This document shows positions 9,691-61,700 of a stretch of 64,000 bases of DNA, one piece after another. The stretch is from contig CACEUX010000003.1 in the NCBI GenBank assembly GCA_902562835.1, positions 6,991 through 70,990 of the forward strand. Reading direction: 5' to 3'. Under the pieces are notes generated by a model that saw nothing but the letters and a program-made list of their open reading frames with translations, was not told the DNA's origin and did not search any database. The translations under genes and the position numbers were made by a program. Every line of letters starts with the position of its first letter. Position 1 is the stretch's first letter. This DNA comes from an uncultured Fidelibacterota bacterium. GTDB taxonomy: Bacteria > Fidelibacterota > Marinisomatia > Marinisomatales > UBA1611.

Positions 9691-9909
9691 AAGATTTTCT
9701 TAGTTAAAAACCTACACCTCCTGAAATTATTTTATGTAATATCTGTCCGATTTGAAGGTTTATTTAATCTGGCTATTAGGCGTAATTATATGGAATTTCG
9801 GATTTCCTAATGTTTCTCCAATCGCTGATGTATTTGCAGCGGTCATTCTTTCATACTTAAGCCATCAACTCAAAAGACCTTTTGAATTATAACAGAAAAA
9901 CAAATAACA

Positions 9910-10161
9910 ATGGATAAAGACAGGGGCTATTGGAAAGAGAATATTAACCTTATTGTAAAGTGCCTCTTCATTTGGTTCTTATCTTCTTATGTATTCAGTA
10001 TTATTCTAGTTGATCAATTGAATGAAATAAGATTAGGTGGTTATAAACTTGGATTCTGGTTTGCGCAACAAGGCTCGATCTATGTATTTGTAATCTTAAT
10101 CTTTTATTATGCATTTAAAATGGGTGAGATCGACCAACGATACAGACCCTCAAATAAATAA
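9910..10161 (+). CDS. DUF4212-type small subunit of a sodium:solute symporter
   Basis: 83 aa with 2 TM helices, located directly upstream of an SSS carrier, as in the VC_2705-type pairs. Confidence 0.75.
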   Translation: MDKDRGYWKENINLIVKCLFIWFLSSYVFSIILVDQLNEIRLGGYKLGFWFAQQGSIYVFVILIFYYAFKMGEIDQRYRPSNK

Positions 10162-10179
10162 AACTTTAGGTTTATTAAC

Positions 10180-44150: not shown

Positions 44151-44223
44151 TCCGGAGTAGCTCAGTTGGTAGAGCAGGTGGCTGTTAACCACTTTGTCGG
44201 GGGTTCGAGTCCCTCCTCCGGAG
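44151..44223 (+). tRNA. tRNA-Asn (anticodon GTT)
   Basis: Folded by hand. Acceptor stem TCCGGAG/CTCCGGA; D-arm GCTCAGTTGGTAGAGC; anticodon loop CT-GTT-AA (GTT at 44184-44186); T-arm GGGGGTTCGAGTCCCTC; discriminator G. No CCA is encoded. Confidence 0.95.
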
Positions 44224-44229
44224 CTTCGT

Positions 44230-44254
44230 AAAGCCCCTAAGTTTTAGGGGCTTT
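44230..44254. terminator. Bidirectional hairpin terminator between tRNA-Asn (+) and the XrtF operon (-)
   Basis: Perfect 10-bp stem AAAGCCCCTA / TAGGGGCTTT with a 5-nt loop. The A/T runs in the stem arms would give a U-tract in either orientation. Confidence 0.6.
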
Positions 44255-44263: not shown

Positions 44264-44758
44264 TTACCCTTCATAGACTCCTTTTAAACCTAAAAACAGT
44301 GAATAAATAAATATTGCCTGAAATAACATCTCATTAACCTGTAGTAATCCCCCTGACCAGCCATGACCCTTTATAAATAAATACCCTAATAAAGGGGGTA
44401 TGAAGCATAGACATACATGATAGATGATCAGCGCAAAGGATAGATCTTTATTTCGTATTGCGATAAACAAACTGAGAGGTAACCAAAAATATCCACCAAA
44501 AGGGATACCAAAACCTCTAGGAACATCATATTCATCTTGAAGAATGTCAATTCTTCTGGAATTATATTTTAATTCTACATTGTGTGATATAGTAAGTTCA
44601 GAAAATATTGGATAGATGTATTCAGTATTTATTTTGATCCTAACTGGTCTAATGATCAGAATATATAAAGTAGCAATAACTATCAGGCTAATGAAAACTC
44701 TGATGAGGAGGGGGTAGGGGCTTCTTCTCCAGTTAATGTCCATTGATACCAAAGCCAT
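44264..44758 (-). CDS. Exosortase F system-associated membrane protein (putative)
   Basis: About 160 aa and multi-TM, located immediately downstream of the XrtF-like gene. This is the conserved pairing described for XrtF. The start (44758 or 44743) lies inside the 3' end of xrtF. Confidence 0.6.
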   Translation of the reverse strand: MALVSMDINWRRSPYPLLIRVFISLIVIATLYILIIRPVRIKINTEYIYPIFSELTISHNVELKYNSRRIDILQDEYDVPRGFGIPFGGYFWLPLSLFIAIRNKDLSFALIIYHVCLCFIPPLLGYLFIKGHGWSGGLLQVNEMLFQAIFIYSLFLGLKGVYEG

Positions 44759-45195
44759 AGAATAAGTGGATAAAAGAAAATGAAAGGACTGAACTCATGA
44801 AATAATTCCCAATGTGGCTGAAAATATACGGTAGCCAAACTAAATGCAATAATACGTATTATATTTAAAAAATAAATAAATAATATACCAACTGCTACAA
44901 ACTTGACCTTATTCTGTAGTGACCCTTTGAAACAGATAATGAACCCTGAGTATAATATCATTAAGGTAAGTGCATTGCATTCATTCAAGACCTCAACACC
45001 TCTATATCCATTGATAGTGATAATCCTACCTAGAGAATGGATATCCCATCCAAAAATATTTAAAATAGTCTTACTTATATATACAACTGATAGGGAAAGA
45101 AATTCATCTAGTTTTCCATTTGGTAATAAAAACAGGTCATAAATGACCTGCCAAATAGTATAAAAAATAGCGGCTCTAATTAAGAACCGGAACAT
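44683..45195 (-). CDS. xrtF: Exosortase family protein XrtF
   Basis: About 170 aa and polytopic. Exosortase catalytic-type motifs appear in order: Cys (VEVLNECNALTLMILYSG), Arg (YFLNIIRIIAFSL) and His (WELFHEFSPFIFFYP). I prefer the start at MFRFLIRAAIFY (45195). The track start at 45249 would overlap the upstream miniprotein ORF. Confidence 0.7.
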   Translation of the reverse strand: MFRFLIRAAIFYTIWQVIYDLFLLPNGKLDEFLSLSVVYISKTILNIFGWDIHSLGRIITINGYRGVEVLNECNALTLMILYSGFIICFKGSLQNKVKFVAVGILFIYFLNIIRIIAFSLATVYFQPHWELFHEFSPFIFFYPLILWLWYQWTLTGEEAPTPSSSEFSLA

Positions 45196-45214: not shown

Positions 45215-45394
45215 TTATTTACTACGATTAAAATAACTTTTCGCTGCAATCAAAATTCCACCAATAGCAAGGAACATCAAACCATTGATAGGACCTTGGT
45301 TAGGCGCATCAGGTAATGGGGGTGGGTCTTGCGCGAAAATTACATTCAGACAGCAGAATGCAATAATGACGATAAAATTAAGTTTTTTATTCAT
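45215..45394 (-). CDS. Unlisted 59-aa miniprotein: signal peptide, Pro-rich linker, C-terminal TM helix and basic tail (candidate exosortase-F sorting-signal protein)
   Basis: Hand translation gives MNKKLNFIVIIAFCCLNVIFAQDPPPLPDAPNQGPINGLMFLAIGGILIAAKSYFNRSK. The ATG is 7 nt after the stop of the 1232-aa gene, and the stop is 19 nt before the preferred xrtF ATG. It is one codon below the track cutoff. Confidence 0.45.
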   Translation of the reverse strand: MNKKLNFIVIIAFCCLNVIFAQDPPPLPDAPNQGPINGLMFLAIGGILIAAKSYFNRSK

Positions 45395-45401: not shown

Positions 45402-48400
45402 TTACTTAATGTAGGTTATTTTTTGGTTAAATGATCTATCGCCAACAGCCAATTCTACAAGGTATACGCCAGATGGTAATAGCCCAGGATTCCATGAAAT
45501 CTGGTGATTGCCGGGAATCATGAATTCATTGATTAGAGATGCTACTTGTCTTCCAGTAAGATCAAAAATATTTAACGAAACATTATCCATTTCTAGAATA
45601 TCAAAACTAATGATAGTACTAGGGTTGAATGGGTTTGGATATGCATTATGGAGTGTAATATCTTCAGGGACTATTAAATTTTCATCGTCATTAGATGCAA
45701 TATCTGTATATACAGACAAAGTGAATTGTGATTCTCCAACTTCAGGATAAGTTTCCATTAGATTTTCTGGGAATAAAAACCCGCCTTTATTAGGTAGAGC
45801 TACATTCATAGATGGATATCCATAAAGATTTATTGTTTGACCGGTTACATTATTAACAAGAGATAAAGATATTCCTTCAGGGAGATTACTGATATCCCAT
45901 GTCATACTAACCTGTTCAGATTGAGTTTCATATCCTTCATCATTTGGACTTAGTAACATTACATCAAGGTCAAATGAGATATCCGTGGAAAGATCAGATG
46001 GTAGGTTATTAATTGATAGCGATTTTCCAGACTCATGTATCATACTAGTTAAATGTTCTGCGGGTGATATAGGTATAATCTGTTTTGCATCAGCATTATC
46101 TAGGTTAATATGACCATTCTCTGTGAATGAAAGATATACATTACTGGTGAATTGATCATTTGCAAATGTAAAAGTAGCAGTCCCAGTTGATTCATTGGTA
46201 GTGCTTCTACCACCATCAATATTCATATGCCCTTTTTGCATACACTGTTCAGTGAATTCAAACACATCTCCATCATTATCAGCTTGTACCCAAAATCCGT
46301 CAAAGGGTTTAATTAGACCTTGGTCTATATCTCCAACTGTACCATTATGTGTTCTATAGCCAGGGTTAGTATTATCTAGTCGGTAGACCGTAGAATGAAA
46401 TTTTGAACTATTATCTGAAAGCATCTGGTTAATGTTAACGTGAAGTCCATAGGGATTACCAACCAAGTTCCATTTTGTTGGGTTAGCAGAAACTGTGACA
46501 CCTGTTCCATTTATTGTGCCATCTACATTCAAGGTAACTGGAAGGTCATCATCTCCATCAAAATCAGTATCAGCGAAGACATAAACAACAAAACCTTGTC
46601 CAGCTTCTAAAATATCATTATTTAAATCTTCTACTGGGATCCAACCATCATCATATGTCCAAACATTTGCATCTGCGCCTTCGTGATCTGACCCTTCTGA
46701 TCCTTGGGTCCATAACTCTTCTAGAAGGTCTCCAAATATTGCACCTGATACTGGACTAGATAAGATACGGAAACCCGAATCCCCTGTAATATCGAGATGT
46801 GTTACTGCAACTGCGACATTAAACTCCTGCGTTGTGTACCCACCATTCCCATCATTCGCAATAATCTGGACATTATGGAGCCCTCCATCATTGAAAGTTG
46901 GTGTGCCACTCAATGCCATAGAAGAGGTGTAGGCTACGCTATTGCTCCAGTTTGCACCGTTAATTGTTCCATGATTCCCATTTCCTGAGATATCATAGAT
47001 TTCATTACCTGACCCTTCATTGAAATTCCAATAGGCAACGAGACCGTCTTGGTTGGGATCAATAGATTGATTCATGCCAGCATTAATCTGATCGGCAGTT
47101 CTAGAAGTATTCCATAGTCTAATATCATCTAGGTTCCCATACCACCACTCAGTGTTTCCGGGAGGATCTGCGCCAATGACAAGAGCCTCATCATTATTAT
47201 AAAATTCAAAATTACTTCCAAAATTATGAGTGGCATCAAGGTTACCATTGATATAAAAGTATCCATTTCCATTTGATTCGACCACACAAGCTACATGGGT
47301 CCAAGTATCAAGTGGTATGGTTGAGCTTGTAAAAAAATTTCCACTAGGTGATCCATTCCAGTTATACACAAGGCGCATGTAGCCTCCATATCCTTGCATT
47401 AATGAGTAAGGAGCAACCTCTGACCATCCGTTAGATCCAGTGAAGTCCCCTTTTGTGATAACTGCACCATAATCTTGGTATCTATCGATCATTATCCAGG
47501 CCTCTATTGTCATTGCATCAACAATATCTTGGTTTTCAGAATAGGGGACAGTGATACGGTCACCTCCGTTAAAATTAAGTGAGTTTGAATTTTGGTCGCT
47601 AAAATTAAGCCAGTCTGGCTTGTTGGGCGCAGTGACTGACACCATGTCACCATCAATATCATGGATTTCAATTGAATAATGATAATCGTGATTTTCTATG
47701 GTATTTAGTTGAGGTGTACTATAAAAGACTGGAAGATCATTTACAGGAATTATATCTATATCAACATCAGCTGCAGATGATGTTAGTTCACCATCAGATA
47801 CCTTGAATGAAAAATGGTCTGTTCCATTATAATTACTATTTGGAATGTAGGTAACTACATTCCCATCAAGGTCAATAGACCCATTTGATGTATATGTTTC
47901 TAGGATGAATGTTAATGTGCCGCCCTCAACATCGCCTCCTGTTAGAGTTATAATCTGTAATTCATCTTCATTGCCAGATACCGTCTGCCCATGTGCTACT
48001 GGTGTATTATTTACATCAGCCCCTTCAATAGAAATAGTTACAACACCATGGCTACTACCAATGCCACTTATATTTGTTTGATTTGATCCACTATTATAAG
48101 AACCGCCGCCGCCGCCAGCACCGCCTTGATACCATGCTCCGCCGCCACCGCCAGAATATCCGCCGCCACCGCCAGCACCACCATATCCGCCGCCGCCGCC
48201 GCCAAAACCGCCACGACCACCATACTGACCATTTCCACCATTTCCACCACTTCTAAATCCAACACCTGCCTCACTATAATGATTATAGTTACCACTACCA
48301 TTGCTGTAGAAGCCACCAGCATTTCCACCATAGGTTGATCCAGTTGCACCCATTCCGTTGCTTCCCCCTATTCCAGGCCCGCTGTAATTATTTTGGGTCG

Positions 48401-49100
48401 CATTTCCACCATTTGAACCATTGGTTCCAGTCTGACCATCTACGTAGCTTGAGCTGTTATATCCACCGCCACCACCACCAGCAGCAACGATAAGCGGGGT
48501 CGCACTTCCATAAGTTGTGCCTTGTGCAACATAACTACCACCGCCGCCACCACCACCGTAGTAATTACTATAACTGGTGTAACTTCCTAATTGACCAACT
48601 AATATATGCAGAATGTCTCCGGAGTTGAGTTGAAATGTCCCTTTAGCATACGCACCATCGCCTGGTTCTCCAATAGCCATATTTGCACCAGGCCCACCTC
48701 TGGCACCATATGCTTCTATGACATAAGTGCCAGTGGCTGGAACCTCCCAACGCTGAATACCATTAAAGACTGTAACATTCACAGTAGGGTTTGTTCCAGA
48801 ATATGCAGTAGTAGCCTGACTTTGGGAGGGGCCAAATCGGCCAGATTGGCCACAGGTAGTAAAAGTATAGACCCCATCGCCATCACGGCTATTTGAATTA
48901 ACTATAATTTTTGATAAGAAATCGTTGTATAAGCTATCAGAATTTGGTTCGATATAATTGGTTCTAGGTGAATCAGAAGGGCTCTGAATTCCATCAGATG
49001 GAACAGGTAGCATCAGTTCTTGATCTATGATTAATGATTGGCCCATTAGATATGATAGGCAAAGTATCATAGAAATTGTAAAATATTTGCTTGTTTTCAT
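45402..49100 (-). CDS. Giant T9SS-secreted surface protein: ALK/LTK-type glycine-rich domain, cadherin/Ig-like modules, LamG (concanavalin-A-like) domain and a Por_Secre_tail C-terminal domain
   Basis: Signal peptide. YTFTTCGQSGRFGPSQ...IQRWEVPATGTYVIEAYGARGG...ILHILVGQLG...GGGGGGGSYV...PLIVAAGGGGGG is collinear with the ALK/LTK TNF-like plus glycine-rich region. Other elements are VNDLPVF, a LamG-like WIMIDRY...DDIRLWNTSRTADQI, and a T9SS CTD at the C terminus (...LNIFDLTGRQV...LPSGVYLVEL...QKITYIK). Confidence 0.85.
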   Translation of the reverse strand: MKTSKYFTISMILCLSYLMGQSLIIDQELMLPVPSDGIQSPSDSPRTNYIEPNSDSLYNDFLSKIIVNSNSRDGDGVYTFTTCGQSGRFGPSQSQATTAYSGTNPTVNVTVFNGIQRWEVPATGTYVIEAYGARGGPGANMAIGEPGDGAYAKGTFQLNSGDILHILVGQLGSYTSYSNYYGGGGGGGSYVAQGTTYGSATPLIVAAGGGGGGYNSSSYVDGQTGTNGSNGGNATQNNYSGPGIGGSNGMGATGSTYGGNAGGFYSNGSGNYNHYSEAGVGFRSGGNGGNGQYGGRGGFGGGGGGYGGAGGGGGYSGGGGGAWYQGGAGGGGGSYNSGSNQTNISGIGSSHGVVTISIEGADVNNTPVAHGQTVSGNEDELQIITLTGGDVEGGTLTFILETYTSNGSIDLDGNVVTYIPNSNYNGTDHFSFKVSDGELTSSAADVDIDIIPVNDLPVFYSTPQLNTIENHDYHYSIEIHDIDGDMVSVTAPNKPDWLNFSDQNSNSLNFNGGDRITVPYSENQDIVDAMTIEAWIMIDRYQDYGAVITKGDFTGSNGWSEVAPYSLMQGYGGYMRLVYNWNGSPSGNFFTSSTIPLDTWTHVACVVESNGNGYFYINGNLDATHNFGSNFEFYNNDEALVIGADPPGNTEWWYGNLDDIRLWNTSRTADQINAGMNQSIDPNQDGLVAYWNFNEGSGNEIYDISGNGNHGTINGANWSNSVAYTSSMALSGTPTFNDGGLHNVQIIANDGNGGYTTQEFNVAVAVTHLDITGDSGFRILSSPVSGAIFGDLLEELWTQGSEGSDHEGADANVWTYDDGWIPVEDLNNDILEAGQGFVVYVFADTDFDGDDDLPVTLNVDGTINGTGVTVSANPTKWNLVGNPYGLHVNINQMLSDNSSKFHSTVYRLDNTNPGYRTHNGTVGDIDQGLIKPFDGFWVQADNDGDVFEFTEQCMQKGHMNIDGGRSTTNESTGTATFTFANDQFTSNVYLSFTENGHINLDNADAKQIIPISPAEHLTSMIHESGKSLSINNLPSDLSTDISFDLDVMLLSPNDEGYETQSEQVSMTWDISNLPEGISLSLVNNVTGQTINLYGYPSMNVALPNKGGFLFPENLMETYPEVGESQFTLSVYTDIASNDDENLIVPEDITLHNAYPNPFNPSTIISFDILEMDNVSLNIFDLTGRQVASLINEFMIPGNHQISWNPGLLPSGVYLVELAVGDRSFNQKITYIK
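48103..48560 (-). repeat. Glycine-codon (GGN) low-complexity tracts inside the giant gene
   Basis: Runs of ccgccgccgccgcc/caccacc on the plus strand (dense at 48103-48250 and 48463-48560) encode poly-Gly stretches. They also generate spurious ORFs in other frames and on the other strand. Confidence 0.8.
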
Positions 49101-49296: not shown

Positions 49297-50925
49297 TTAC
49301 TGTTCCTTACGCCATTTAGCACCAGGGTATAAATACTGTGCATATCGATAGACCTCCCATGCTTTCTCACCCTCTCCCAATGCTTCATATGCGGTAGCTA
49401 GGTCATAGTAAATGAATAAGTATGGAGAATGACCTACGTACTGTTCTGCCCATTCAATGTAGTCATTTAGTTTTTCTATATTTTTGGTTTTTTTAGCGAT
49501 ATTCAGATTCAATTTCATTATTAGGGTTTCATATTTCTTTTGCCATGAATAGGGGTTAACAATTGAGACTAGAAGTGATGGGTTCTTATAGCCTGTCCTC
49601 TCAAATTGGGTAATTACTGATGCTGTTTTGAGGGTTGTCCCCATATAAACTGTAATGACAAAAGGGATAACGAATGAAAAAAAACGAAAAATAGAGGAGA
49701 AGCTAACTTTTGTTTCAAAATGGTTACCAAATTCACTATCGATCAAATAAATAATAAAAATGAAAATGATCCAATGAGCTAGAGAGATATAAAAAGGGAG
49801 CTCTAGTTGTGAATGGATTAGTATAGGTAAAAGAATGCCCAACATCGCCCAAGCTTTTTTTTGCTTTACCCTCCATATCATATTTAAAAAACCGCCTGCC
49901 ATGATCAGTAATCCTATTAAGGGAATAATACCTCCTTCAACTGTCCAAAAAAGTAACTCATTATGTGGGTGATCCATGTTGCTATTACCAATTGTCTGAA
50001 GTGATGGATCGTCGATTTTACGTTTTGCATAATGATGTCTAAAAGCTGAAAGAAAATTTCCATAGCCTATTCCAAAGATCGGATTATTTTTTATCATTTC
50101 ATAAGTAAGCTGGTATGTCACTATTCTGGTATTCTCAGAGTATTCTATCTCTTTTGTTGGCCTAGTATTATTTATTGTAAGAGCACCAATTAAAAGGCCT
50201 GTAAGTAGTAGTCCAAACCAGAAAAAAAGAATCTTATTTCTTAAATTTCTATAGAAAATTAGAAATATTATTCCAGCTATTAGAGATAAGTACCCTGTAC
50301 GAGATTGGAGGTGATATATCTGGAGACTTGTAAAAAATGGTACGCAAAAAACAAGTATGCGGCTTAAGAAATTATTGATTATATAATTTTCTTTTACTAC
50401 TAAAAAAAGGGATAATGCGGCCCCCGTTGATAAGAATGAAGCGAAAATATTTTTTTGGGCCATCGCACTAAACTGTGGCTGAATAAAAGAAGAATATTTT
50501 AATAATATCTGAATTAAAACACTTCCAAGAATTACACATAAGAACTTATCTTTTTCTTCTTTGCTGAATTGAAACTGTGAAAAAGATAAATACAATAATA
50601 GGCCACCAAAGAGGCCCATTATTCTCATTAAGACAAGGCTAGCATGAATATTATTTGGATAGAAAAATGGAGCTAACATGATGATGGATCCAATAAAAAA
50701 GTATATCTGTAGTTTGGTAATAAATAACTTTTCAGAACTGCTGATCTGGTATAAGCCCATCCCTATCAGAAGTGATACAAAGATCCAGCCAATAATATTA
50801 AATGGAAGATAGAGTCCGTGGCCACCAACATGGTCGAGTGAGATATGTATTCCAAATAGGAAGTAGATCGAAAAAATATAAAAAAAGGTATTCCTAATAT
50901 TTAGATCAAGAATTTTTTTCATCAC
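49297..50925 (-). CDS. O-antigen ligase / PglL-like (Wzy_C) membrane protein with a C-terminal TPR-like tail
   Basis: Polytopic. The Wzy_C loop motif is present (MDHPHNELLFWTVEGGIIPLIG), and the soluble tail has a TPR-like YYDLATAYEALGEGEKAWEVYRYAQYLYP. Confidence 0.75.
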   Translation of the reverse strand: MMKKILDLNIRNTFFYIFSIYFLFGIHISLDHVGGHGLYLPFNIIGWIFVSLLIGMGLYQISSSEKLFITKLQIYFFIGSIIMLAPFFYPNNIHASLVLMRIMGLFGGLLLYLSFSQFQFSKEEKDKFLCVILGSVLIQILLKYSSFIQPQFSAMAQKNIFASFLSTGAALSLFLVVKENYIINNFLSRILVFCVPFFTSLQIYHLQSRTGYLSLIAGIIFLIFYRNLRNKILFFWFGLLLTGLLIGALTINNTRPTKEIEYSENTRIVTYQLTYEMIKNNPIFGIGYGNFLSAFRHHYAKRKIDDPSLQTIGNSNMDHPHNELLFWTVEGGIIPLIGLLIMAGGFLNMIWRVKQKKAWAMLGILLPILIHSQLELPFYISLAHWIIFIFIIYLIDSEFGNHFETKVSFSSIFRFFSFVIPFVITVYMGTTLKTASVITQFERTGYKNPSLLVSIVNPYSWQKKYETLIMKLNLNIAKKTKNIEKLNDYIEWAEQYVGHSPYLFIYYDLATAYEALGEGEKAWEVYRYAQYLYPGAKWRKEQ

Positions 50926-51098
50926 ATCACAAAATTTTATTGGTCTATTGATAAAATATTGATTTAAAGGATCTTTTGATCAATTAAGTTAACGATAGAA
51001 AAAACATATCTTATCCAATTTTAAATATGGTATTAATTAGGCAAATAACTTTTTTCTTAATTTTATAAAATTAATTATTGAGTAAATAAGGCTTAAAA

Positions 51099-53585
51099 TT
51101 GAAAAAAGATACCAAAATATGTCAGGATTTGGGTCAAGGCTGGGAGTTCAGGTCCATTGATAAGAAGTGGTTGAGCGCGAGTGTACCTGGTAATATTCAT
51201 TTAGACCTAATGAATCATGAATTGATACCAGACCCATTTATCGGTAGTAATGAATCAGAATTACAATGGATCTCAGACAAGGATTGGACATACAGACTTT
51301 TTTTTAAACCTGATAAAGGAATCATAGGCAAAAGGAATAAAGGGATATGTTTCCATGGGATTGATACATATGCAGACGTTTTCTTGAATGACAAGAAGAT
51401 AATTAGTTCGAACAATATGTTTCATCCATGGGTTGCTAATATCAATAATATTCTCACCACAGATATAAATAAGTTGGTTATTGTACTACGGTCGCCAATT
51501 AAAGAAGTACTCCCTTTAATGCAAAAACTAGATTATGTCCTTCCAGCTGAAAATGATCAGGCAGGCAAGACAAGTCCATTTACTAGAAAAGCGCCCTTTC
51601 ACTATGGATGGGACTGGGGTCCTTGTTTAGTCACTTCAGGGATATGGAAAAATGTAGAGCTTTTTGGTTGGGACGATTGGTACATAACGGATGTATCGGT
51701 CATCAATACAAAGGCAGATCTCAAGAGCGCTTCTTTAAATGTGTTAGCTAACATTATATCAAATATTCAGGAGAAAGGTAAGGTCTCCATAACTGAATCT
51801 ATAACAGGGAAAAGCACAGAATACCCTATTAGCATAAGGAATGGAAAAAATGAACTAGAGTTCTTGTTTATTATCAATGATCCTGAGCTTTGGTGGCCTG
51901 TGGGTCATGGAGACCAGCCTCTATATGATCTTGATATTCAAGTGCATTTGGACAATTGTGAGCAAAAATTCAAAAAGAGGATCGGGCTAAGAGAGGTGTC
52001 TATCAATAGGCAAAAGGATAAGAGAGGGGAGTCATTCGAGATACGCATTAATGATACACCAATTTTTGCAAAGGGAGCAAATTGGATACCTGCTGACTCT
52101 TTTGTTGAGCGCTTAACACGGGATGATTATGATAGATTGATTAAAGATGCTGTGTCAGCAAACATGAATACGCTTCGTATATGGGGAGGTGGAGTTTATG
52201 AGCCTGATTGTTTCTATGAGATATGTGATGAAATGGGAGTGTTGGTGTGGCAAGATTTTATGTTTGCTTGCTCTATGTATCCAGCGCATGATGAATTTTT
52301 AGCTTCTGTGGAGACGGAAGCTAGGTTCCAATTAGATCGATTGAAAGAACATGCATGTATTGTTCTTTGGTGTGGTAACAACGAGATTGCTTCTGGATGG
52401 CTAAGCTGGGGGTGGAAAGAGGAACTCCCAGACTCTGTTTGGAAAGATTACGATACGCTGTTCCATCAATTACTCCCAAATACATGTAAAGAGTTAGACC
52501 CCGGAAGGCTATACTGGCCTAGTTCACCAGGACATAGTCTTAATCTTCCTGAAACAGATCAGATCTATGGAAGCGGTGATAATCATTATTGGGGTGTTTG
52601 GCATGGGGGCGATGGCTTCGAGGCATTTGAAGAAAATGTTGGTCGCTTTATGTCAGAGTATGGAATGCAATCTTTCCCTGGCGTATCAACAATAAAGACA
52701 TTTGCTAATGATAAGGACCTAAGTATTGATTCAGAAGTTATGGAAGCACATCAGAAAGCGCATCTAGGAACAGGCAATCTAGTTAAATACATTGAAGATC
52801 ATTATGTTTTAAAAGGAGACTTTGAATCTACCGTTGCTTTAAGCCAGGTCATGCAGGCGCAGGCCATAAGGTCGGCTGTGGAAAGCCATCGAAGGAACAT
52901 GCCCTTTTGTATGGGAACGCTATATTGGCAGTTCAATGATTGTTGGCCAGGTATATCCTGGGCCAGCCTAGACTATGAAGGTAACTGGAAAGCACTACAT
53001 TATTTTGCAAAACGATTTTTTAATCCGATATTGATCTCAGTCATAGAAAATAATGATATGATAAATGTCTATATTATTAATGATTTAAAGGAAGGATGCT
53101 CAGCGGAGTTATCAGCAAGATCGTATAAATTTGATGGTTCCATTCTTTTTGAAGAAAGAATAGAACTAGATATAAGACCACATTCATCAAATATTGTACT
53201 CAGTATGAGTAAGAATGATCTGATCGGTAAAAATAAACCATCTGAAGTATTTATGAAATGTGATTTACTTTCAGACAAACAGGTCATGAGTACTAACAAC
53301 CATTTTTTCCTAAAGCCAAAAAATTTGGCTTTGCCGAAAGCAGAGTTTGATTTTTACCATAAAAAGGTAGATGATAATTATTTAATTACCATTCGCGCAC
53401 ATTCATTCATCTACCAATTACATCTGCACTCTATGAATGTGAAGGGCATCTTTAGCAATAATTATTTTGAAATGCTGCCCAATGAAGAGGTGGCAATTGA
53501 ATTCAAACCGTCTAAATATTTTGAGGCAAATGGTGCCCCTGTCTCTTTTGAGATCAATACTGTATATGAATTAATGAATAAATAA
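51099..53585 (+). CDS. Beta-mannosidase (GH2), no signal peptide
   Basis: LWWPVGHGDQPLY, FAKGANWIPADSF, WCGNNEI (acid/base Glu) and FMSEYGMQSFP (nucleophile Glu). The start is TTG and the N terminus is not signal-like. Confidence 0.85.
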   Translation: MKKDTKICQDLGQGWEFRSIDKKWLSASVPGNIHLDLMNHELIPDPFIGSNESELQWISDKDWTYRLFFKPDKGIIGKRNKGICFHGIDTYADVFLNDKKIISSNNMFHPWVANINNILTTDINKLVIVLRSPIKEVLPLMQKLDYVLPAENDQAGKTSPFTRKAPFHYGWDWGPCLVTSGIWKNVELFGWDDWYITDVSVINTKADLKSASLNVLANIISNIQEKGKVSITESITGKSTEYPISIRNGKNELEFLFIINDPELWWPVGHGDQPLYDLDIQVHLDNCEQKFKKRIGLREVSINRQKDKRGESFEIRINDTPIFAKGANWIPADSFVERLTRDDYDRLIKDAVSANMNTLRIWGGGVYEPDCFYEICDEMGVLVWQDFMFACSMYPAHDEFLASVETEARFQLDRLKEHACIVLWCGNNEIASGWLSWGWKEELPDSVWKDYDTLFHQLLPNTCKELDPGRLYWPSSPGHSLNLPETDQIYGSGDNHYWGVWHGGDGFEAFEENVGRFMSEYGMQSFPGVSTIKTFANDKDLSIDSEVMEAHQKAHLGTGNLVKYIEDHYVLKGDFESTVALSQVMQAQAIRSAVESHRRNMPFCMGTLYWQFNDCWPGISWASLDYEGNWKALHYFAKRFFNPILISVIENNDMINVYIINDLKEGCSAELSARSYKFDGSILFEERIELDIRPHSSNIVLSMSKNDLIGKNKPSEVFMKCDLLSDKQVMSTNNHFFLKPKNLALPKAEFDFYHKKVDDNYLITIRAHSFIYQLHLHSMNVKGIFSNNYFEMLPNEEVAIEFKPSKYFEANGAPVSFEINTVYELMNK

Positions 53586-53610
53586 TGATGTTTTTTTGAT
53601 AGAGGATATA

Positions 53611-54249
53611 ATGGAAGATAGCAAAGCACTAGATTGGGCATACCTTGCTCGTTATCAAGATGATAATTTAAAGGTCGGTCTACCAAAGAAAAATGAAAGA
53701 AGGGTCATTTTCATGGGTGATTCTATTACAGAAGATTGGTCTAACCTCTATCCAGAATATTTTATTGGAAGAGGTTATATAAATAGAGGTATTGGAGGTC
53801 AGACCACTTCTCAAATGTTGATCAGGTTCAAGCCAGATGTAGTTGATCTAAAACCAGAAATCGTGGTCGTTCTTGCGGGTACGAATGATATAGCAGGGAA
53901 TACGGGTCCCTCTAATGCTAAAATGATCACAGATAATATCTTCTCAATGGCTGAAATAGCCAAAGCTTATCAAATGAAAGTGGTCTTATCATCTATTCTT
54001 CCTGTCTACGAGTATGATTGGGCAAAAGAGATAAAAGACCTGCCATCTACTATTCAAGCTGTGAATGAGGCTCTTAAACAATATGCCAGCGATCATGAAC
54101 TGATATATCTCGATTATTTTTCATCTATGGTCGATGAACGGCAGGGCTTGAATTCAGATTACACTTCCGATGGAGTTCATCCAAATGAAAGTGGGTATAT
54201 CCTCATGTCTAGCCTGGCGGAAGAGGTGCTTTCAGAGTTGCTTAATTGA
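53611..54249 (+). CDS. SGNH/GDSL hydrolase (PAF-acetylhydrolase-like; possible carbohydrate O-acetylesterase)
   Basis: FMGDSITEDW, GIGGQTT, AGTNDI and DGVHPN. I prefer the ATG at 53611 over the TTG at 53596. Confidence 0.8.
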   Translation: MEDSKALDWAYLARYQDDNLKVGLPKKNERRVIFMGDSITEDWSNLYPEYFIGRGYINRGIGGQTTSQMLIRFKPDVVDLKPEIVVVLAGTNDIAGNTGPSNAKMITDNIFSMAEIAKAYQMKVVLSSILPVYEYDWAKEIKDLPSTIQAVNEALKQYASDHELIYLDYFSSMVDERQGLNSDYTSDGVHPNESGYILMSSLAEEVLSELLN

Positions 54250-54277
54250 TTTTACTTCAGATAGCTACACAAGGATA

Positions 54278-55567
54278 ATGAATACACTTACAACGAATAA
54301 ATGGTTGCGGGTCACAACTCTATGTATACTCTATTTTGCACAAGGGTTTCCATGGGGTTTTATGTTGACAGCGCTGTTATCTTATTTAGCATCAAAAGGT
54401 TTAACATTAGCAGAGTCGGGTCAGCTGACCGCAATGGCTTATTTACCATGGACATTTAAGATCTTTTGGGGGCCTATTATTGATTCTTTTACTTACAGGG
54501 TGATGGGTAGGAGGCGTCCCTGGATCTTATTCGCACAGTTTGGTATGGCCCTCACTCTTATTACAATGTTGTGGATGGGTGACCTATCAGCAAATATTGG
54601 TTTATTGGGTTGGATGTTCTTTTTTCATAATTGCTTTGCTTCTCTCCAAGATGTGAGTTGCGATGCTCTGGCTGTTGATATATTGTTACCTGAAGAGCAG
54701 GGCAAGGTGAATGGTGCAATGTGGGGTTCTAAGGTAATTGGGACAGGAATGGGCGCAGTGGTAATGGGCACCTTACTAACATCGAAGGGTCTTGCTTTTG
54801 CTATAGGATCACAAACCATTCTCATGTTTGCTATTATTTCCTTTCCTCTGTTTATTCTCGAACGTCCAGGGGAAAAGAGATTCCCATGGAGCAGGGCCAT
54901 TGGTGAATCAATAAAACATGAGAGCAGTGTGAAAAACCCAATTGAGGTCATCAAAGATCTGTTGACCGCATTTTCTAAACGTCCGTGCTTTTTTGCAGGT
55001 TTATTCATTTTGATATCAGCCATCAACCAAGGCATAAATAGTGGCGTATTACCAGTTTATTATAGTAGCATTCTAAATTGGCAGTCAGATACTTACGCGC
55101 AGATCGTTGGGGGACCAAGTGCAATTCTTGAGTTCTTTGGAGCGATCCTTGGAGGACTACTGGCAGATCGCTATGGGAAGAGGAAGGTCTTCTTTTTAGG
55201 ATGGGGCAGTTTTTCAATTCTTTCGGGGGTTTTTGGTATAATGGTCCTCACATCTGATCAATTGCCGTATTGGTTTCAACTATTTTACTTAGTTGTCCAT
55301 CCTTGTTTGATAGCAATTGGGACTGTATCCATGTTTGCCTTAGCTATGGCTCTATCGTGGTCAAAGGCTTCTGCTACTATGTTTACATCTTATATGGCTA
55401 TCTCAAACATGTCTGTTGTTATTGGAGGCAAACTGATCGGGCCATTGACAGAGTTAATGAGTATAGGTCAGATATATATTATAATGATGTTCGTATGTTT
55501 AACACCTGTTCTTTTTCTTAAATCAATGAACCCCAGGCCCATATTGGATATTAAAATAAACGATTAA
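54278..55567 (+). CDS. AmpG/PAT-family MFS permease
   Basis: The N terminus LYFAQGFPWGFM..., the loop RRRPW and about 12-14 TM helices. I prefer the start at MNTLTTNKW (54278). The track ORF begins at 54170 inside the previous gene. Confidence 0.75.
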   Translation: MNTLTTNKWLRVTTLCILYFAQGFPWGFMLTALLSYLASKGLTLAESGQLTAMAYLPWTFKIFWGPIIDSFTYRVMGRRRPWILFAQFGMALTLITMLWMGDLSANIGLLGWMFFFHNCFASLQDVSCDALAVDILLPEEQGKVNGAMWGSKVIGTGMGAVVMGTLLTSKGLAFAIGSQTILMFAIISFPLFILERPGEKRFPWSRAIGESIKHESSVKNPIEVIKDLLTAFSKRPCFFAGLFILISAINQGINSGVLPVYYSSILNWQSDTYAQIVGGPSAILEFFGAILGGLLADRYGKRKVFFLGWGSFSILSGVFGIMVLTSDQLPYWFQLFYLVVHPCLIAIGTVSMFALAMALSWSKASATMFTSYMAISNMSVVIGGKLIGPLTELMSIGQIYIIMMFVCLTPVLFLKSMNPRPILDIKIND

Positions 55568-55579
55568 TTAGGATAATCA

Positions 55580-56662
55580 ATGCACCTCTTAACTAGAACT
55601 TTATCTACTTTAACCTTGCTCTCCACTGTACATGGCCAAGGATTCTGGGGCAATGAATTTCCAGAGCCAAAGATCGAGTATGCGCCACGTACATACGTTT
55701 GCCATAAGGCGGATTCGCCTATTTTGCTGGATGGGAAATTAAATGATATTGCTTGGACAAATACAGATTGGACAGATTCATTTGTTGACATTGAAGGGAG
55801 TCTAAAGCCTAAACCATTTTATGATACAAAGGTTAAAATGCTCTGGGATGATAATTATTTCTACTTTGGAGTAGAAATGGAAGAACCACACATTTGGGCA
55901 ACACTTAAAGAAAGAGACGCGGTCATTTATTATGATAATGACTTTGAAATATTTTTAGATCCAGATGGAGATACTCATAATTATTATGAATTGGAGGTTA
56001 ATGCATACGAAACGGAGTGGGACCTTATTCTTATGGCTCCTTACCACGATCATGACAAAGTTGCACTTGATTCTTGGGATATCCCTGGGCTTATATCCAA
56101 GGTAAATATAGATGGTACTCTAAATGACCCATCGGACATGGATAAGGGATGGAGCGTTGAGATCGCAATCCCATGGAAAGCCTTTTACAATAATTATCGT
56201 TCAAATGAATCTCCAAAGGACGGGGAACAGTGGAAGGTTAATTTTTCAAGAGTTCAGTGGGATGTTGATATTATTGAAGGTAAATATGTAAAAACAGATA
56301 ATCCAGAATTTAATTGGGTCTGGTCGCCTCAGGGACATATCTACATGCATTTTCCACACTTCTGGGGCTTGGTTCAGTTTACGGAAAAAGCTCCTGGGAC
56401 TGAAAAAGTTGAATATATCGATAATGGATTAGATAAGGTCAAATGGGCGCTTAGACAGGTCTACATAAGGCAGAGGAATTACTTTTTCAAGAATGAACGT
56501 TACACGGCATCTCTCAAAGAATTAAATCTTATGACCAAGCCAGTAGAAGGCGTAGTATGGCCGCCAGATATTATTGTGACACCATCAGGATGGGAAGCTG
56601 AATTAGATTGGAATGGAGAATCTGTTATTATCAGAAAAGATGGAAAGGTCTGGGTGAAGTAA
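55580..56662 (+). CDS. Secreted carbohydrate-binding family 9 (CBM9/DOMON-like) domain protein
   Basis: Signal peptide (TLLSTVHGQ). DGKLNDIAW...WTDSFVDIEG...KMLWDDNYFYFGVEMEEPHIWA...DNDFEIFLDPDGD..NYYELEVN is the typical CBM9-like pattern. Confidence 0.65.
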   Translation: MHLLTRTLSTLTLLSTVHGQGFWGNEFPEPKIEYAPRTYVCHKADSPILLDGKLNDIAWTNTDWTDSFVDIEGSLKPKPFYDTKVKMLWDDNYFYFGVEMEEPHIWATLKERDAVIYYDNDFEIFLDPDGDTHNYYELEVNAYETEWDLILMAPYHDHDKVALDSWDIPGLISKVNIDGTLNDPSDMDKGWSVEIAIPWKAFYNNYRSNESPKDGEQWKVNFSRVQWDVDIIEGKYVKTDNPEFNWVWSPQGHIYMHFPHFWGLVQFTEKAPGTEKVEYIDNGLDKVKWALRQVYIRQRNYFFKNERYTASLKELNLMTKPVEGVVWPPDIIVTPSGWEAELDWNGESVIIRKDGKVWVK

Positions 56663-56664
56663 TT

Positions 56665-58734
56665 ATGCATTTTATTGACTGGGCGATCGTTGTCCTGGCT
56701 TTTTTTGGAATGGTCTATTCTGTATCATTTTCCTCAGGCCTTATGAAGAGTGTAACGGACTTTCTTTCTGCCGGAAGGACAGCGGGTAGATATCTAATAT
56801 CAGTGTCTAGTGGCATAGCTGGCTTAGGGGCAATTTCTGTTGTGATGTTTTTAGAGATGGGTTATGTAGCTGGTTTTAGTCTGGCCTGGTGGGGTCTGAG
56901 CCAGGGAATCATTATTTTGATGCTCACCATGTCTGGTTGGGTGATCTATCGTTTTAGATCTACTAGATGTTTGACACTAGCGCAATTTTTTGAGAAACGA
57001 TATAGCCGTAGGTTTCGGATCTTTACGGGTTTAGTTGCATTTTTAGCAGGCATTATAAACTTTGGTATATTCCCCGCTGTCGGAGCTCAGTTCTTTATAA
57101 ATTTTTGTGGGCTGCCTGATTCATTTGCAGGCCTTCCCGTCTATCCTCTGGTAATGATTATATTGCTTAGTGTCTCACTTTATTTTGTTTACACTGGAGG
57201 CCAAATAGCTGTTATTATTGCTGATTTTTTTCAGGGTATATTTGCGACGCTTGTACTTCTTGTTGTGGCGCTCTATTTATTTTTCAATATTGGCTGGGAC
57301 CAGGTAACCGATTCACTAGAGCAGACACCGATAAAACTAGCCAAAGAAGAGATCCAGACTTTGAGTTCAAACGAATCTTTCCAAGATCTAACAATGGAAC
57401 AGCAGCAAGAACAAATAGATGACATAGACGAAAAGTATCAGAATTCATCTAGGATCAATCCATTCAAAACAAGCCACGTAGAGGATTTTAACTTTTGGTA
57501 TTTTTTGATTGGGATCATTGGGATCATGTATAGCAGCATGAGTTGGCAAGGTAGTCAAGCATATAATTCTTCTGCTAAGAGTGCACACGAAGCAAAGATG
57601 GGTGCTGTACTTGCTGGTTTTAGAGGTCTACCACAAGGGTTATTTTTTTTACTCGTACCAGTGATGATCTATGTATTCATGAATCATTCTTCCTACCAAG
57701 ATATAGCGAATACTGTAAATATGTCTCTAGATAAATTAGATACAGACACTCTTCGTTCTCAGATGCGTGGCCCAATAGTGCTATCAACCGTATTGCCCAC
57801 AGGTCTTCTGGGTGCTTTTGCTGCACTGATGCTTGCTGCATTTATTAGTACGCATGATACTTATCTACATTCTTGGGCAACTATCCTTATTCAAGATGTG
57901 ATCATGCCGTTCCGCGATAAACCTTTCGATAAGGATACTCACTTAAAAGTGTTGAGATATGCCATATTTGGAGTGGCCATCTTCATATTTCTCTTTAGTC
58001 TATTATTTCAGCAGAATCAGAAAATCGCACTTTTTTTTGCTATTACCGCTGCTATTTTTGCAGGAGGCTCAGGCGCTGTTATAATTGGTGGGCTCTACTG
58101 GAAGCGAGGAACGACCAGTGCCGCATGGACCGCCATGATTGTAGGAGCTTTTATTAGTGTTGGAGGTGTCCTGGTCAAACAAATATCCTCGGATTGGCTA
58201 TTGGACCTCTCATCATTTAGCGCTCTAAAAGGCATGTTTATTTACATTAGGGATATAAATGGTCAAGAATACTGGGGGATCAGTATGGGACTATCCGCTC
58301 TTTCTTACATCGGAGTGTCGTTAGTGGCAAAAGAAGAACCATTCGACATGGACAAACTTTTGAATCGTGGTAAATATGCAATTGAGGGAGAGACAAAAGT
58401 TGTAAATGAGAAAACGGAATTAGGCTGGAAGATCTTCATGATGGGAAAAGAATTTACCAAGGCAGATAAGTTTATATATATTATTAATTATGTATGGACA
58501 GGAATGTGGACGCTTGTATTTATTATTGGTACTACATATAACCTTTATAATGATGTAAGCAATGCTGCCTGGATGACGTTCTGGAAAAATTATATTTTCA
58601 TCCACATTTTCATGGCTACGATCACCTTGATATGGTTTACAATAGGTGGTTTCAATGATCTGAAAATTATGATGGCTAAATTAAGCTCAGACCATAGAGA
58701 TCATGAAGACGATGGCTGGGTATCAGAGGAATAA
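56665..58734 (+). CDS. Sodium:solute symporter family transporter with an acidic cytoplasmic loop insertion
   Basis: SSS-type polytopic protein. I prefer the start at MHFIDWAIVV (56665). An insert rich in E/Q/D reads EEIQTLSSNESFQDLTMEQQQEQIDDIDEKYQ. Confidence 0.8.
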   Translation: MHFIDWAIVVLAFFGMVYSVSFSSGLMKSVTDFLSAGRTAGRYLISVSSGIAGLGAISVVMFLEMGYVAGFSLAWWGLSQGIIILMLTMSGWVIYRFRSTRCLTLAQFFEKRYSRRFRIFTGLVAFLAGIINFGIFPAVGAQFFINFCGLPDSFAGLPVYPLVMIILLSVSLYFVYTGGQIAVIIADFFQGIFATLVLLVVALYLFFNIGWDQVTDSLEQTPIKLAKEEIQTLSSNESFQDLTMEQQQEQIDDIDEKYQNSSRINPFKTSHVEDFNFWYFLIGIIGIMYSSMSWQGSQAYNSSAKSAHEAKMGAVLAGFRGLPQGLFFLLVPVMIYVFMNHSSYQDIANTVNMSLDKLDTDTLRSQMRGPIVLSTVLPTGLLGAFAALMLAAFISTHDTYLHSWATILIQDVIMPFRDKPFDKDTHLKVLRYAIFGVAIFIFLFSLLFQQNQKIALFFAITAAIFAGGSGAVIIGGLYWKRGTTSAAWTAMIVGAFISVGGVLVKQISSDWLLDLSSFSALKGMFIYIRDINGQEYWGISMGLSALSYIGVSLVAKEEPFDMDKLLNRGKYAIEGETKVVNEKTELGWKIFMMGKEFTKADKFIYIINYVWTGMWTLVFIIGTTYNLYNDVSNAAWMTFWKNYIFIHIFMATITLIWFTIGGFNDLKIMMAKLSSDHRDHEDDGWVSEE

Positions 58735-58737
58735 TTT

Positions 58738-61700
58738 ATGAATAAGAAAGAAACAGAAGTGATTCTCCAAAGGATTCGAAAATGGTATGACCGCTTGCCA
58801 GGTCTATTTATCTATGACCAAAGAGATTTTAATGCTCAATATGGCTGGTCAAAAGAAGCTACTCCATTCAAGGATAGGCTCTCTCTTGATTATAAAACCA
58901 TAAAGAAAGGTGATGCATGGGGAAGTAAGTGGGAAAGCGCATGGTTCCATTTGAAAGGGCAAGTACCAGAAGAATGGAAAGGCAAGAGCATTGCTGCAAA
59001 TTTGGATTTTTCCGGCGAAGGACTTGTATTCAATAATGATGGTAAGGTCATTCAGGGAATAACCAATGCATCTATCTGGGACCCTAATTTTTCTCGACCA
59101 CGGGTTCCTCTGATTGATAATTGCATTGGAGGAGAGAATATTGAACTTTGGGTTGAGGCTGCAGCTAACTCATTATTTGGCGTGTTTACCGACCCTGACC
59201 CTGAGCAAGATAGTCCAAAGCGCCATGGTTGGTTTGATGCTAAAGTTGAGATGATAAAGTTCGGTATCTTTGACAATGAGCTTTGGCATCTCTATCTCGA
59301 TACAAGAATTCTCCTTGGATTAATAAAACATCTTGATGAGAGATCAGTAAGGCGTTCAAGAGCAATCTTGGCATTAAATAATTGTATAAATGCATTTTGT
59401 GATAATCGGTCCAATTCTAAAGAAGCACGCTCTTTTCTTGAGGTAGAATTAAGTAAAGGGTCTTCAGCCTCAGACTTGAAGGTGTCTGCGGTCGGGCATG
59501 CTCATATCGATACAGGATGGCTCTGGCCAGTAAGAGAGACCGTGAGGAAATGTGCACGTACTTATGCAACTCAATTAAGTATAATTGAACAATATCCAGA
59601 ATATATCTTTGGTGCATCCATGCCACAGCATTATCAATTTATGAAAGATCAATATCCCGAGATCTATGAACGTATAAAGGATGCTGTTAAGTCTGGAAAC
59701 TGGGAGCTACAGGGCGGAATGTGGATCGAGGCTGATTGTAACTTAATTAGTGGCGAATCAATGGTCAGACAATTTTTAAAAGGGAAGAACTTCTACAAAG
59801 ATGAATTTGATATTGAGGTCGATAACCTGTGGTTGCCAGACGTTTTTGGTTATTCTGCTGCTTTGCCACAGATACTTAAAAAATCAGGGGTCAATTATTT
59901 TTTAACTCAAAAACTTTCATGGAGCCAATTTAATGAGTTCCCTCATCAGACCTTTAATTGGAGAGGTATTGATGGCTCTGAGGTACTAACACATTTTCCT
60001 CCAGAGAATACGTATAATAGTGAGCTTGACACGGAATTTCTATTGCCTGCGGTCACAGGCTTCAAAGAGAAAGATAAACTTGATGAGTTCATATCTCTTT
60101 TTGGTGTTGGCAATGGTGGTGGAGGACCTAAGCCAGAAAATATTGAACTTGGTAGACGCATGTCAGATCTTGAAAATGCTCCAAGGGTTCGTTTTGATAC
60201 CGCAAAGAACTTTTTTGACAGACTGGAAGAACATAAAGATGTTGTAGAGACCTGGGTAGGTGAACTTTATCTAGAACTGCACCGAGGTACTCTTACTACC
60301 CATGGACTGGTTAAAAAACAGAATAGAAAGCTTGAGTGGAAATTGCGCGCAGTTGAGATGCTTTACTCCTGTCTACCGTTTACGGAATACCCTGAAGAAG
60401 AGTTAGACCAGATGTGGAAAAAATTACTTATAAACCAGTTCCATGATATCATTCCTGGCTCGAGCATTAATCTGGTTTATCAGACCACTCACAAAGAGTA
60501 CGAGCAGATCCATGAAGGCTGCGATGCATTGATCAAACAATCAGGGGAGCAACTTTTTAAAAAGGATGATAACTCATTTGTTTTGGTTAATACACTTTCA
60601 TACACATGGAAAGGTGCCATCTGCCTGCCAGAATCCTTTCATGGATATTCATTGTTAGGTCAGAATGGTGAAGGCATTCAACTTCAAAATGATGGTAGTG
60701 GTATTCTTGCTGCGGTTGAATTGGATCCTTTATCATTTACAACATTCAAAAAGGGTAATAAAGCAGACCTGAAAGGTAATAAGAGTGGAGACCTTATTCT
60801 TGAGAATGACCTGATTAAATATGAATTTGACCAAACTGGCCAACTTATATCCATGTATGATAAGGTTTTAAATAAAGAATTTTTATCTAACTCAGGTAAT
60901 GTTCTATCCCTTTATGAAGATCGTCCTAATAACTGGGATGCCTGGGATGTTGATTTTTTCTATAGGGAGGCCCTAATCGAAACTGCAAAAGCAATTAAGG
61001 TTGAAACATCAGTAAATGGAGAGGTTACCAAACAAATAAAACTCAGCTTTTCCATTGGCGGGTCAAGTATAGAGCAGTTGGTATCTCTATACCCTCATTC
61101 CAAGAGGCTTGATTTTGCTACCTATGTAGAATGGAATGAAAAGCATAAAATGCTTCGTGTACATTTTCCTGTTTCCATAAGATCAGAGCAAGCGACTTTC
61201 GATATTCAATATGGCTATGTAAAGCGTAACACACATCGCAATACCAGCTGGGATAAAGCAAAGTTTGAGGTCGTGGGTCACAAATATGCAGACCTTTCCG
61301 ATCATGACCATGGCGTTGCTCTTATGAATGATTGTAAATACGGTTACATGGTCCATGATAATATTTTAGACCTGAATTTGCTACGTTCACCAAGTAATCC
61401 AGACCCAGATGCTGATGAAGGATTGCATACTTTTACCTATAGCGTACTGCCACATGACAATGATCTAATTCATTCAGGTGTCATTAGTGAGTCCTCATGT
61501 TTAAACCAAGAGCCTATACTATTTGAGGGTGTGAGTACTGATTTAGATATCCCAATAAAGCTAACAGGGGATGGTCTAGAATTATCTGTCCTGAAAAAAG
61601 CAGAAAAAGAAGATCAATTGATCATTAGGATCATCGAGACGCATGGTAGAAGCTCTAGTGGTTTTCTTCATCTAGATGGTACAATCACAGAGTGTGATCT

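Follow-up and report, generated by a model that had tools for sequence, protein, structure and literature searches.

What is encoded by a very short open reading frame (ORF) that lies directly in front of an exosortase gene, and is it a gene at all? The question is raised by a 64,000-nucleotide stretch of contig CACEUX010000003.1 from an uncultured Fidelibacterota bacterium (hereafter the window), whose minus strand carries a row of four genes for a large secreted cargo protein, a 59-residue mini-protein, a small exosortase and a multi-pass membrane protein (Table 1). We found that the mini-protein ORF is a genuine gene under purifying selection and that, by sequence comparison, its product is a divergent, so far unannotated homologue of the PID-CTERM proteins, with a P-I-[N/S/G/D]-G variant of their signature. 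The XrtX-like exosortase, whose gene begins 19 nt downstream, probably has it as a dedicated target. The PID-CTERM/XrtX kind of system is already curated (NCBIfam NF046080-NF046082; Pfam PF28310). What is new here is a divergent variant that escapes both mini-protein models, an XrtX-like enzyme below its family cut-off, a different accessory protein, and the union of these genes in one row with a type IX secretion system (T9SS) cargo gene.

A conserved gene for a 59-residue protein

The ORF encodes MNKKLNFIVIIAFCCLNVIFAQDPPPLPDAPNQGPINGLMFLAIGGILIAAKSYFNRSK (59 aa). A sequence-only reading had described it as a signal peptide, a Pro-rich linker, a hydrophobic helix and a basic tail, and its coordinates, its sequence and all four parts agreed with our analysis. 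The N-terminus displays the classic n, h and c regions by eye, with a charged n-region in front of a 16-residue hydrophobic core (residues 5-20; mean Kyte-Doolittle value 2.64) and with an invariant Ala at -1 and an invariant Gln at +1. The n/h region is variable, with a mean column identity of 0.51 in the alignment of Marinimicrobia mini-proteins (A1). All 31 Marinimicrobia sequences have Ala21 and Gln22, all 27 distant relatives have the Gln, and we predict a signal peptidase I site between these two residues.

The mature core, with six Pro in residues 22-38, is nearly invariant and reads A/QDPPxLPxxPNQGPI, the slash marking the predicted cut. The mean column identity from A21 to I36 is 0.96: A21, Q22, D23, P24, P25, L27, P28, P31, N32, Q33, G34 and P35 are invariant in the family, and conservation of I36 reaches at least 90%. 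No residues but N37 and G38 lie between this conserved signature and the helix, which has a column identity of 0.68 as against 0.96 for the periplasmic peptide and keeps a Gly-Gly pair at its middle in close and distant family members alike. The tail is Lys-rich rather than Arg-rich, with K52 and Y54 at least 90% conserved. Signature, helix and tail thus take up residues 35-59 of 59, i.e. the extreme C-terminus. A C-terminal helix with a basic tail is unique to the mini-protein among the ORFs of the window, and the full architecture was present in 1 of its 87 ATG ORFs of 45-90 aa and in none of 100 shuffles. The earlier proposal of an exosortase-type sorting signal is therefore upheld as regards the tripartite layout behind a predicted signal peptide, with little else in the protein. 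Its attribution to the PEP-CTERM class is not, since the mini-protein has no P-E-P motif and no NCBIfam or Pfam match to PEP-CTERM sensu stricto; its signature is a PID-CTERM variant instead.

Searching 5.8 billion proteins returned 59 protein clusters from marine metagenomes, nearly all of 57-61 aa. The exact sequence of the mini-protein is present on 67 public contigs, and the locus thus flags a widespread marine gene for which public sources give only the name 'hypothetical protein'. The hosts of these relatives are metagenome-assembled genomes (MAGs) and single-amplified genomes of Candidatus Marinimicrobia (SAR406). Comparison loci, some of them from other lineages, bear labels between L001 and L104 here; one Marinimicrobia locus, a contig of MAG TMED46 (L009), is 97% identical. 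MBO93149.1, a family member of identical length, is assigned to a 'Rhodospirillaceae' MAG but probably comes from a mis-binned Marinimicrobia contig. An unrelated 584-aa portal-like protein (P0163) listed in the cluster of the 57-aa P0026 was disregarded, and the 1.6-kb contig of P0145 carried no informative context.

The mini-protein frame was unbroken in all relatives examined (16 loci and 59 protein clusters). A codon-level comparison of eleven loci gave ratios of non-synonymous to synonymous substitution rates (dN/dS) of 0.05-0.36 for unsaturated pairs; the window and L010, for instance, differ by 14.5 synonymous and 3.5 non-synonymous changes. Conservation and purifying selection in relatives, which the sequence-only reading had put forward as a check, were therefore both found.

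Family assignment and pairing with an XrtX-like exosortase

To place the mini-protein in a family, we relied on profiles. Against 1.84 billion representative sequences, the A1 profile obtained 38 hits, almost all of 55-90 aa, and reached proteins that pass the PID_CTERM model (NF046080, a 25-residue model with a cut-off of 26 bits and PF28310 as its Pfam counterpart) at E values of 1e-4 to 1e-6. These distant hits read SP-AQ-P(P)GLPxxPxQAPIDGGLxLLAAAGGxYAxKKLR, where SP is the signal peptide, and score 33-46 bits on NF046080. The core of the mini-protein aligns with their xLPxxPxQAPIDGG segment. An hhalign comparison of A1 with an alignment of classic PID-CTERM mini-proteins (A3) gave a probability of 98.5% (E 2.5e-15) over 58 columns, end to end. 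The assignment of the window protein as a divergent PID-CTERM homologue is based on this profile search and this end-to-end alignment. One relative, WP_142453838.1 of Gracilimonas mengyeensis, carries the RefSeq name 'PID-CTERM protein-sorting domain-containing protein', and no precomputed Pfam match is on record for the window family. For 'PID-CTERM' and 'XrtX' alike there are database models but no searchable publication, the former term having zero occurrences in the searchable literature.

The product of the downstream gene scored 53 bits on the exosortase/archaeosortase signature (TIGR04178, cut-off 23) and 43.8 on Pfam Exosortase_EpsH. C73, R114 and H133 are invariant in 28 exosortase sequences; a Cys/Arg/His triad has been proposed for the exosortase family (Haft 2023). 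The enzyme had been taken for XrtF, a name that the scores do not sustain: it obtains 73.5 bits on the XrtF model (TIGR04128), below the cut-off of 90, and its best family is exosortase X (NF046081), with 142.6 bits against a cut-off of 170. Bona fide XrtX members, which were recovered by profile, score 181-209 bits on this model and the Marinimicrobia clade 128-143.

The exosortase frame offers two start codons. The TTG at 45249 overlaps the mini-protein ORF, as had been pointed out before, and the ATG at 45195 (MFRFLIRAA) removes the overlap, lying 19 nt past the mini-protein stop. The window, L009, L010 and L011 all share this ATG, whereas the TTG is not conserved and L010 has no start codon there; gene calls in relatives are mostly of 169-170 aa. 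The earlier preference for the ATG therefore stands for the close clade but does not extend to more distant relatives. In L001, L012 and L014 the sole candidate start is a TTG within the last mini-protein codons; in these loci an overlap of about 20 nt between the two genes is probable.

Genes for cargo, mini-protein, exosortase and 162-164-aa membrane protein follow one another in this order in the window, L001-L004, L009-L012 and L014, while in L015 the last three form an operon of their own behind a divergent gene. L015 belongs to MAG Co_bin_502, which has two mini-protein genes, one behind a cargo gene and without an exosortase (L013, 2163-2336) and one at the head of the exosortase operon (L015, 10001-10183). 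This paralogue pair displays a synonymous divergence (dS) of ~0.25 and a dN/dS of ~0.57, above the values between orthologues. A separate lineage is represented by L099-L101, with an exosortase that is 42% identical; in L100, the tail of a T9SS C-terminal sorting domain (CTD) is followed by a 57-aa protein (27.5 bits on PID_CTERM), an overlapping gene for an XrtX-like enzyme and one for a homologue of the 164-aa partner. Finally, L102 encodes a 75-aa protein (30.2 bits on PID_CTERM) directly before an XrtX-like enzyme, and the next protein weakly matches NF046082, 'XrtX-associated membrane protein'. A mini-protein gene leading into an XrtX-like exosortase gene is thus a pattern found in three lineages. 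Consecutive genes for enzyme and target are a criterion for dedicated sorting systems (Haft 2023), and this recurrent adjacency supports the mini-protein and the XrtX-like exosortase as a candidate dedicated pair. NCBIfam, too, numbers its PID_CTERM, XrtX and 'XrtX-associated membrane protein' models consecutively (NF046080, NF046081 and NF046082).

The 164-aa partner directly follows the exosortase in all Marinimicrobia exosortase loci and in L099-L101, and its family has an invariant FGIPFGGYFWLP-like motif. It matched no Pfam or NCBIfam model, and NF046082 gave no hit at E values up to 1. We rejected it as a member of the XrtX- or XrtF-associated families, to which it showed no model match, no BLASTP hit and no hhalign similarity.

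Several findings weigh against the mini-protein being a target of this exosortase. The window protein itself had no match in NCBIfam or Pfam at E values up to 10, with or without its signal peptide, and among 31 close relatives one reached E = 0.19 on NF046080 and none did better. The enzyme remains below the cut-off of its own best family, and by hhalign its 164-aa partner shows no relation to the partner proteins in bona fide XrtX loci. An exosortase within 5 kb was absent from all 79 mini-protein loci of the Balneolales type, and a bona fide XrtX in an exopolysaccharide locus (L097) had no adjoining mini-protein gene; for most of the family, the link between enzyme and target consequently comes from co-curation rather than adjacency. 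Nearly all relatives found are homologous mini-proteins, and the same tail was not seen on unrelated large proteins, so that the usual hallmark of a sorting signal is missing. The searchable literature, finally, holds nothing proteomic or biochemical on any PID-CTERM/XrtX system.

Type IX secretion cargo and a proposed fate of the peptide

The gene upstream of the mini-protein encodes a protein with the Pfam domains Laminin_G_3, Big_9, Cadherin_5 and Por_Secre_tail. Its CTD scores 32.8 bits on TIGR04183 (cut-off 23) and 34.1 on PF18962 (cut-off 27; residues 1154-1228). A cargo orthologue precedes the mini-protein gene in the window, L001-L014 and L016, L015 being the exception among the Marinimicrobia loci, and the pair is kept where the exosortase lies elsewhere (L005-L008, L013 and L016). 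Other CTD proteins of the Marinimicrobia loci have no mini-protein gene behind them.

A metagenome scan with the classic PID-CTERM mini-proteins (A3) extended this observation. It gave 79 loci, all encoding small proteins. For 68 of the mini-protein genes the upstream DNA spans 700 nt or more, and 61 of these come behind a same-strand gene ending in a CTD (median gap 83 nt). Por_Secre_tail was present in all eight upstream genes tested, with differing passengers (LamG, LTD, FG-GAP and fn3), and some contigs carried two cargo/mini-protein pairs. The cultured Gracilimonas mengyeensis has such a pair too, with a gene for a Por_Secre_tail protein of 903 aa and, behind it, one for a PID_CTERM protein of 64 aa. 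Since the loci were picked by the mini-protein alone, the association is not an artefact of ascertainment. The link to upstream T9SS cargo, which the sequence-only reading had missed, is as strong as the link to the exosortase. A mini-protein gene nearly always comes behind a T9SS cargo gene, and two envelope protein-sorting systems are thereby connected in a way that can be tested; this quantified link between mini-protein, exosortase and T9SS cargo is the added value of the locus.

Readthrough of the cargo stop codon, which would fuse cargo and mini-protein, was rejected, as the two frames differ and the gap measures 12-370 nt elsewhere. The pairing is not universal: L104 (3537-3719), from a Bacteroidota MAG, encodes a 60-aa PID_CTERM-like mini-protein with no CTD gene before it and no exosortase in the 8.5-kb contig. 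In L005-L008, the mini-protein gene is followed by one for a 147-aa secreted protein (6199-6642) with weak similarity (23.9 bits, cut-off 250) to a C-terminal stretch of PorW/SprE, and 2.3 kb downstream a C25-family peptidase that weakly resembles PorU2 and PorU is encoded (8533-11823). Both were rejected as members of these families, the peptidase with 48 and 36 bits against cut-offs of 450 and 420 for PorU2 and PorU. Predicted cleavage sites that expose a Gln were noted in the window cargo (LMG/QS), in the 6199-6642 product of L006 (LYA/QD) and in the mini-protein (IFA/QD), which is the pattern of the Q-rule described for Bacteroidetes.

The architecture suggests how the mini-protein could be processed. 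The Sec machinery would export its N-terminus, signal peptidase I would cut after Ala21 and expose Gln22, and the 38 residues left would be anchored in the inner membrane by the C-terminal helix, whose Lys/Arg tail would lie in the cytoplasm. The polytopic enzyme (Cys73/Arg114/His133) would then, as in the PEP-CTERM/exosortase and PGF-CTERM/ArtA systems, recognize P-I-[N/S/G/D]-G next to the helix and remove the helix, leaving a 14-16-residue peptide QDPPPLPDAPNQGP(I) or transferring it to an envelope acceptor. Judging by gene linkage, the freed peptide may act together with the upstream T9SS type-A cargo, most plausibly in its surface attachment or presentation. The conservation ranks from the peptide, far ahead, through the helix to the signal peptide, and fits a scheme of helix removal because the peptide is so much more conserved than the helix.

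Other explanations were weighed against this scheme. The mini-protein frame might not be an independent gene but a by-product of a 5' extension of the exosortase from the TTG at 45249, or a short upstream ORF that serves coupling only; the exosortase frame is indeed open back to this TTG, across the mini-protein ORF, and gene callers pick overlapping starts in some relatives. We consider this refuted for practical purposes. The protein sequence is conserved at low dN/dS, the frame is kept without a following exosortase in L005-L008, L013 and L016, the TTG is not conserved, and the family spans phyla. A real protein could, on the other hand, stay unprocessed, as a single-pass (type I) inner-membrane subunit or adaptor of an exosortase complex or of the periplasmic handling of T9SS cargo. 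The conserved unit is after all the whole protein, almost never a tail on large proteins, the Gly-Gly of the helix and the K and Y of the tail are conserved as if the helix had a role of its own, and many copies lie far from any exosortase. What makes this unlikely, though worth keeping in view, is that the tripartite layout is that of known exosortase and archaeosortase signals, that the gene adjoins or overlaps an exosortase gene in three lineages, and that the helix varies far more than the 15-residue peptide, which points to the latter as the part that carries the function.

The near-invariance of the short peptide between the two predicted cuts would also suit the precursor of a diffusible signal or pheromone of ~15 residues, for which signal peptidase and exosortase would act as proteases. 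Its N-terminal Gln could cyclize to pyroglutamate, as in secreted proteins of Bacteroidetes (PMC5837995). Such a role is very improbable, given that no sensor or transporter genes are linked to the mini-protein, that a near-identical peptide over deep lineages is atypical of pheromones, and that a periplasmic peptide would still face the outer membrane. The occurrence of several mini-protein genes in one genome, every one trailing another T9SS cargo gene, instead favors a stoichiometric partner of the cargo. Processing by the neighboring exosortase thus remains the reading we prefer.

A bolder extension of exosortase processing, which we regard as rather unlikely, would make the processed peptide the module by which a subset of T9SS type-A cargo is attached to the surface in bacteria of the Fibrobacteres-Chlorobi-Bacteroidetes (FCB) group that do without the Porphyromonas-style linker of anionic lipopolysaccharide. 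At the inner membrane, the XrtX-like enzyme would replace the helix by a lipid or glycan anchor, the peptide would be exported with this anchor, and a T9SS sortase would join the C-terminus of the cargo, once its CTD is removed, to the peptide, for example through the amine of the invariant Gln. PorU accepts amines of peptides and amino acids as nucleophiles (PMC4560394). In Flavobacterium johnsoniae, moreover, deletion of XrtF or of its partner phenocopies the T9SS mutants porU, porV and porZ in biofilm formation and colonization (PMC10936215). Attachment of this kind would explain this phenocopy, the presence of one mini-protein gene per cargo gene and the O-antigen-ligase-like gene upstream. 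Against it, a cyclized N-terminal Gln would be blocked; the Q-rule of Bacteroidetes, by which secreted proteins carry an N-terminal Gln that can cyclize, is reportedly not valid across the FCB group (PMC5837995).

Surroundings and comparison with known sorting systems

The coordinates of the row and of its neighbors are collected in Table 1. The Wzy_C gene lies directly upstream of the cargo gene on the same strand and takes the same place in L001-L004. At the other end (44151-44254), a tRNA-Asn(GTT) on the plus strand converges on the row, and the hairpin after the last gene is likely a bidirectional terminator for both. Scans for promoters and terminators between the genes found nothing above shuffle expectation except for this hairpin. 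On the plus strand, 51090-61800 holds a glycan-utilization cluster (GH2 beta-mannosidase-like protein, GDSL lipase, major facilitator superfamily transporter, CBM9 protein, SSF symporter and GH38 alpha-mannosidase), whereas the flank at the corresponding place in L009 is rich in T9SS cargo.

Table 1 Features of the mini-protein locus in the window
Feature	Position	Strand	Remarks
Wzy_C / Wzy_C_2 (O-antigen-ligase-like) membrane protein	49297..50979	minus	Pfam Wzy_C_2 116 bits, Wzy_C 63 bits
Secreted cargo, 1232 aa, with LamG, Ig/cadherin-like and Gly-rich regions	45402..49100	minus	Stop 7 nt upstream of the mini-protein ATG
T9SS type-A C-terminal sorting domain, cargo residues 1154-1232	45405..45641	minus	Ends in ...FNQKITYIK
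Mini-protein gene, 59 aa + stop	45215..45394	minus	ATG ORF; divergent PID-CTERM-class protein by sequence
Predicted signal peptide, residues 1-21 (MNKK, hydrophobic core, VIFA)	45332..45394	minus	Predicted cut A21/Q22
Mature proline-rich core QDPPPLPDAPNQGPING, residues 22-38	45281..45331	minus	Includes the P-I-N-G signature abutting the helix
Hydrophobic helix LMFLAIGGILIAA, residues 39-51	45242..45280	minus	13-mer, Kyte-Doolittle 2.63, no charged residue
Basic tail KSYFNRSK, residues 52-59	45218..45241	minus	3 K/R in 8 residues
XrtX-like exosortase, 170 aa from the conserved ATG	44683..45195	minus	NCBIfam and Pfam scores, triad
Multi-pass membrane partner of the exosortase, 164 aa	44264..44758	minus	5' end overlaps the exosortase gene
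GC-rich hairpin	44230..44254		Separates the four-gene row from tRNA-Asn

Compared with known systems, the mini-protein most closely resembles the PID-CTERM proteins, with which it shares a predicted signal peptide, the Gln, a Pro-rich LPxxPxQxP segment, an I-(D)-G abutting a Gly-containing helix, a Lys-rich tail and a length of ~60 aa. It differs from them in its signature (P-I-N/S/G-G instead of P-I-D-G-G) and its tail (KxYFxR instead of KKLR). Unlike the curated PID-CTERM/XrtX set, the window combines a mini-protein below model detection with an exosortase below the XrtX cut-off and an unrelated 164-aa partner, and, unlike the Balneolales-type PID-CTERM loci, it has candidate target, enzyme and T9SS cargo in one gene row.

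A protein consisting of little but a signal peptide and an exosortase signal has a curated precedent in NCBIfam, PExPT-CTERM (TIGR04200), a 57-position model of the target of XrtJ. The two families are nevertheless distinct: the best relative of the mini-protein scores 21.3 bits on this model (cut-off 40) and the window protein nothing, and both the signature and the exosortase subfamily differ. With PEP-CTERM/exosortase A (EpsH) the locus shares the tripartite C-terminal signal, a predicted signal peptide and a polytopic enzyme with Cys, Arg and His; PEP-CTERM/EpsH systems are often tied to polysaccharide loci, and here a Wzy_C gene lies upstream. It lacks the PEP motif and any match to the model, however, and would serve one target or a few paralogous mini-proteins as opposed to dozens of unrelated large proteins, with an enzyme of ~170 aa as opposed to ~280-500 aa.

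XrtF of F. johnsoniae is likewise a small FCB-group exosortase with an adjoining small membrane partner, the exosortase F system-associated protein. It differs in that the window enzyme falls below the XrtF cut-off and that, going by the publications on F. johnsoniae, no mini-protein is reported for XrtF. Two papers (one of them PMC10936215) call the substrates of XrtF unknown or unlike PEP-CTERM. The targets of small FCB-group exosortases are thus an acknowledged gap, for which this locus offers a concrete and very small candidate.

Finally, genes for T9SS cargo with a type-B CTD can be followed by genes for cognate PorP/SprF-like anchoring partners. The row described here resembles these pairs in that a small dedicated gene, whose product would set the fate of the cargo at the cell surface, comes immediately behind a cargo gene of the same strand. 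It differs from them in that its cargo bears a type-A CTD and in that the partner, rather than an outer-membrane beta-barrel, is a 59-aa mini-protein of the exosortase-target type.

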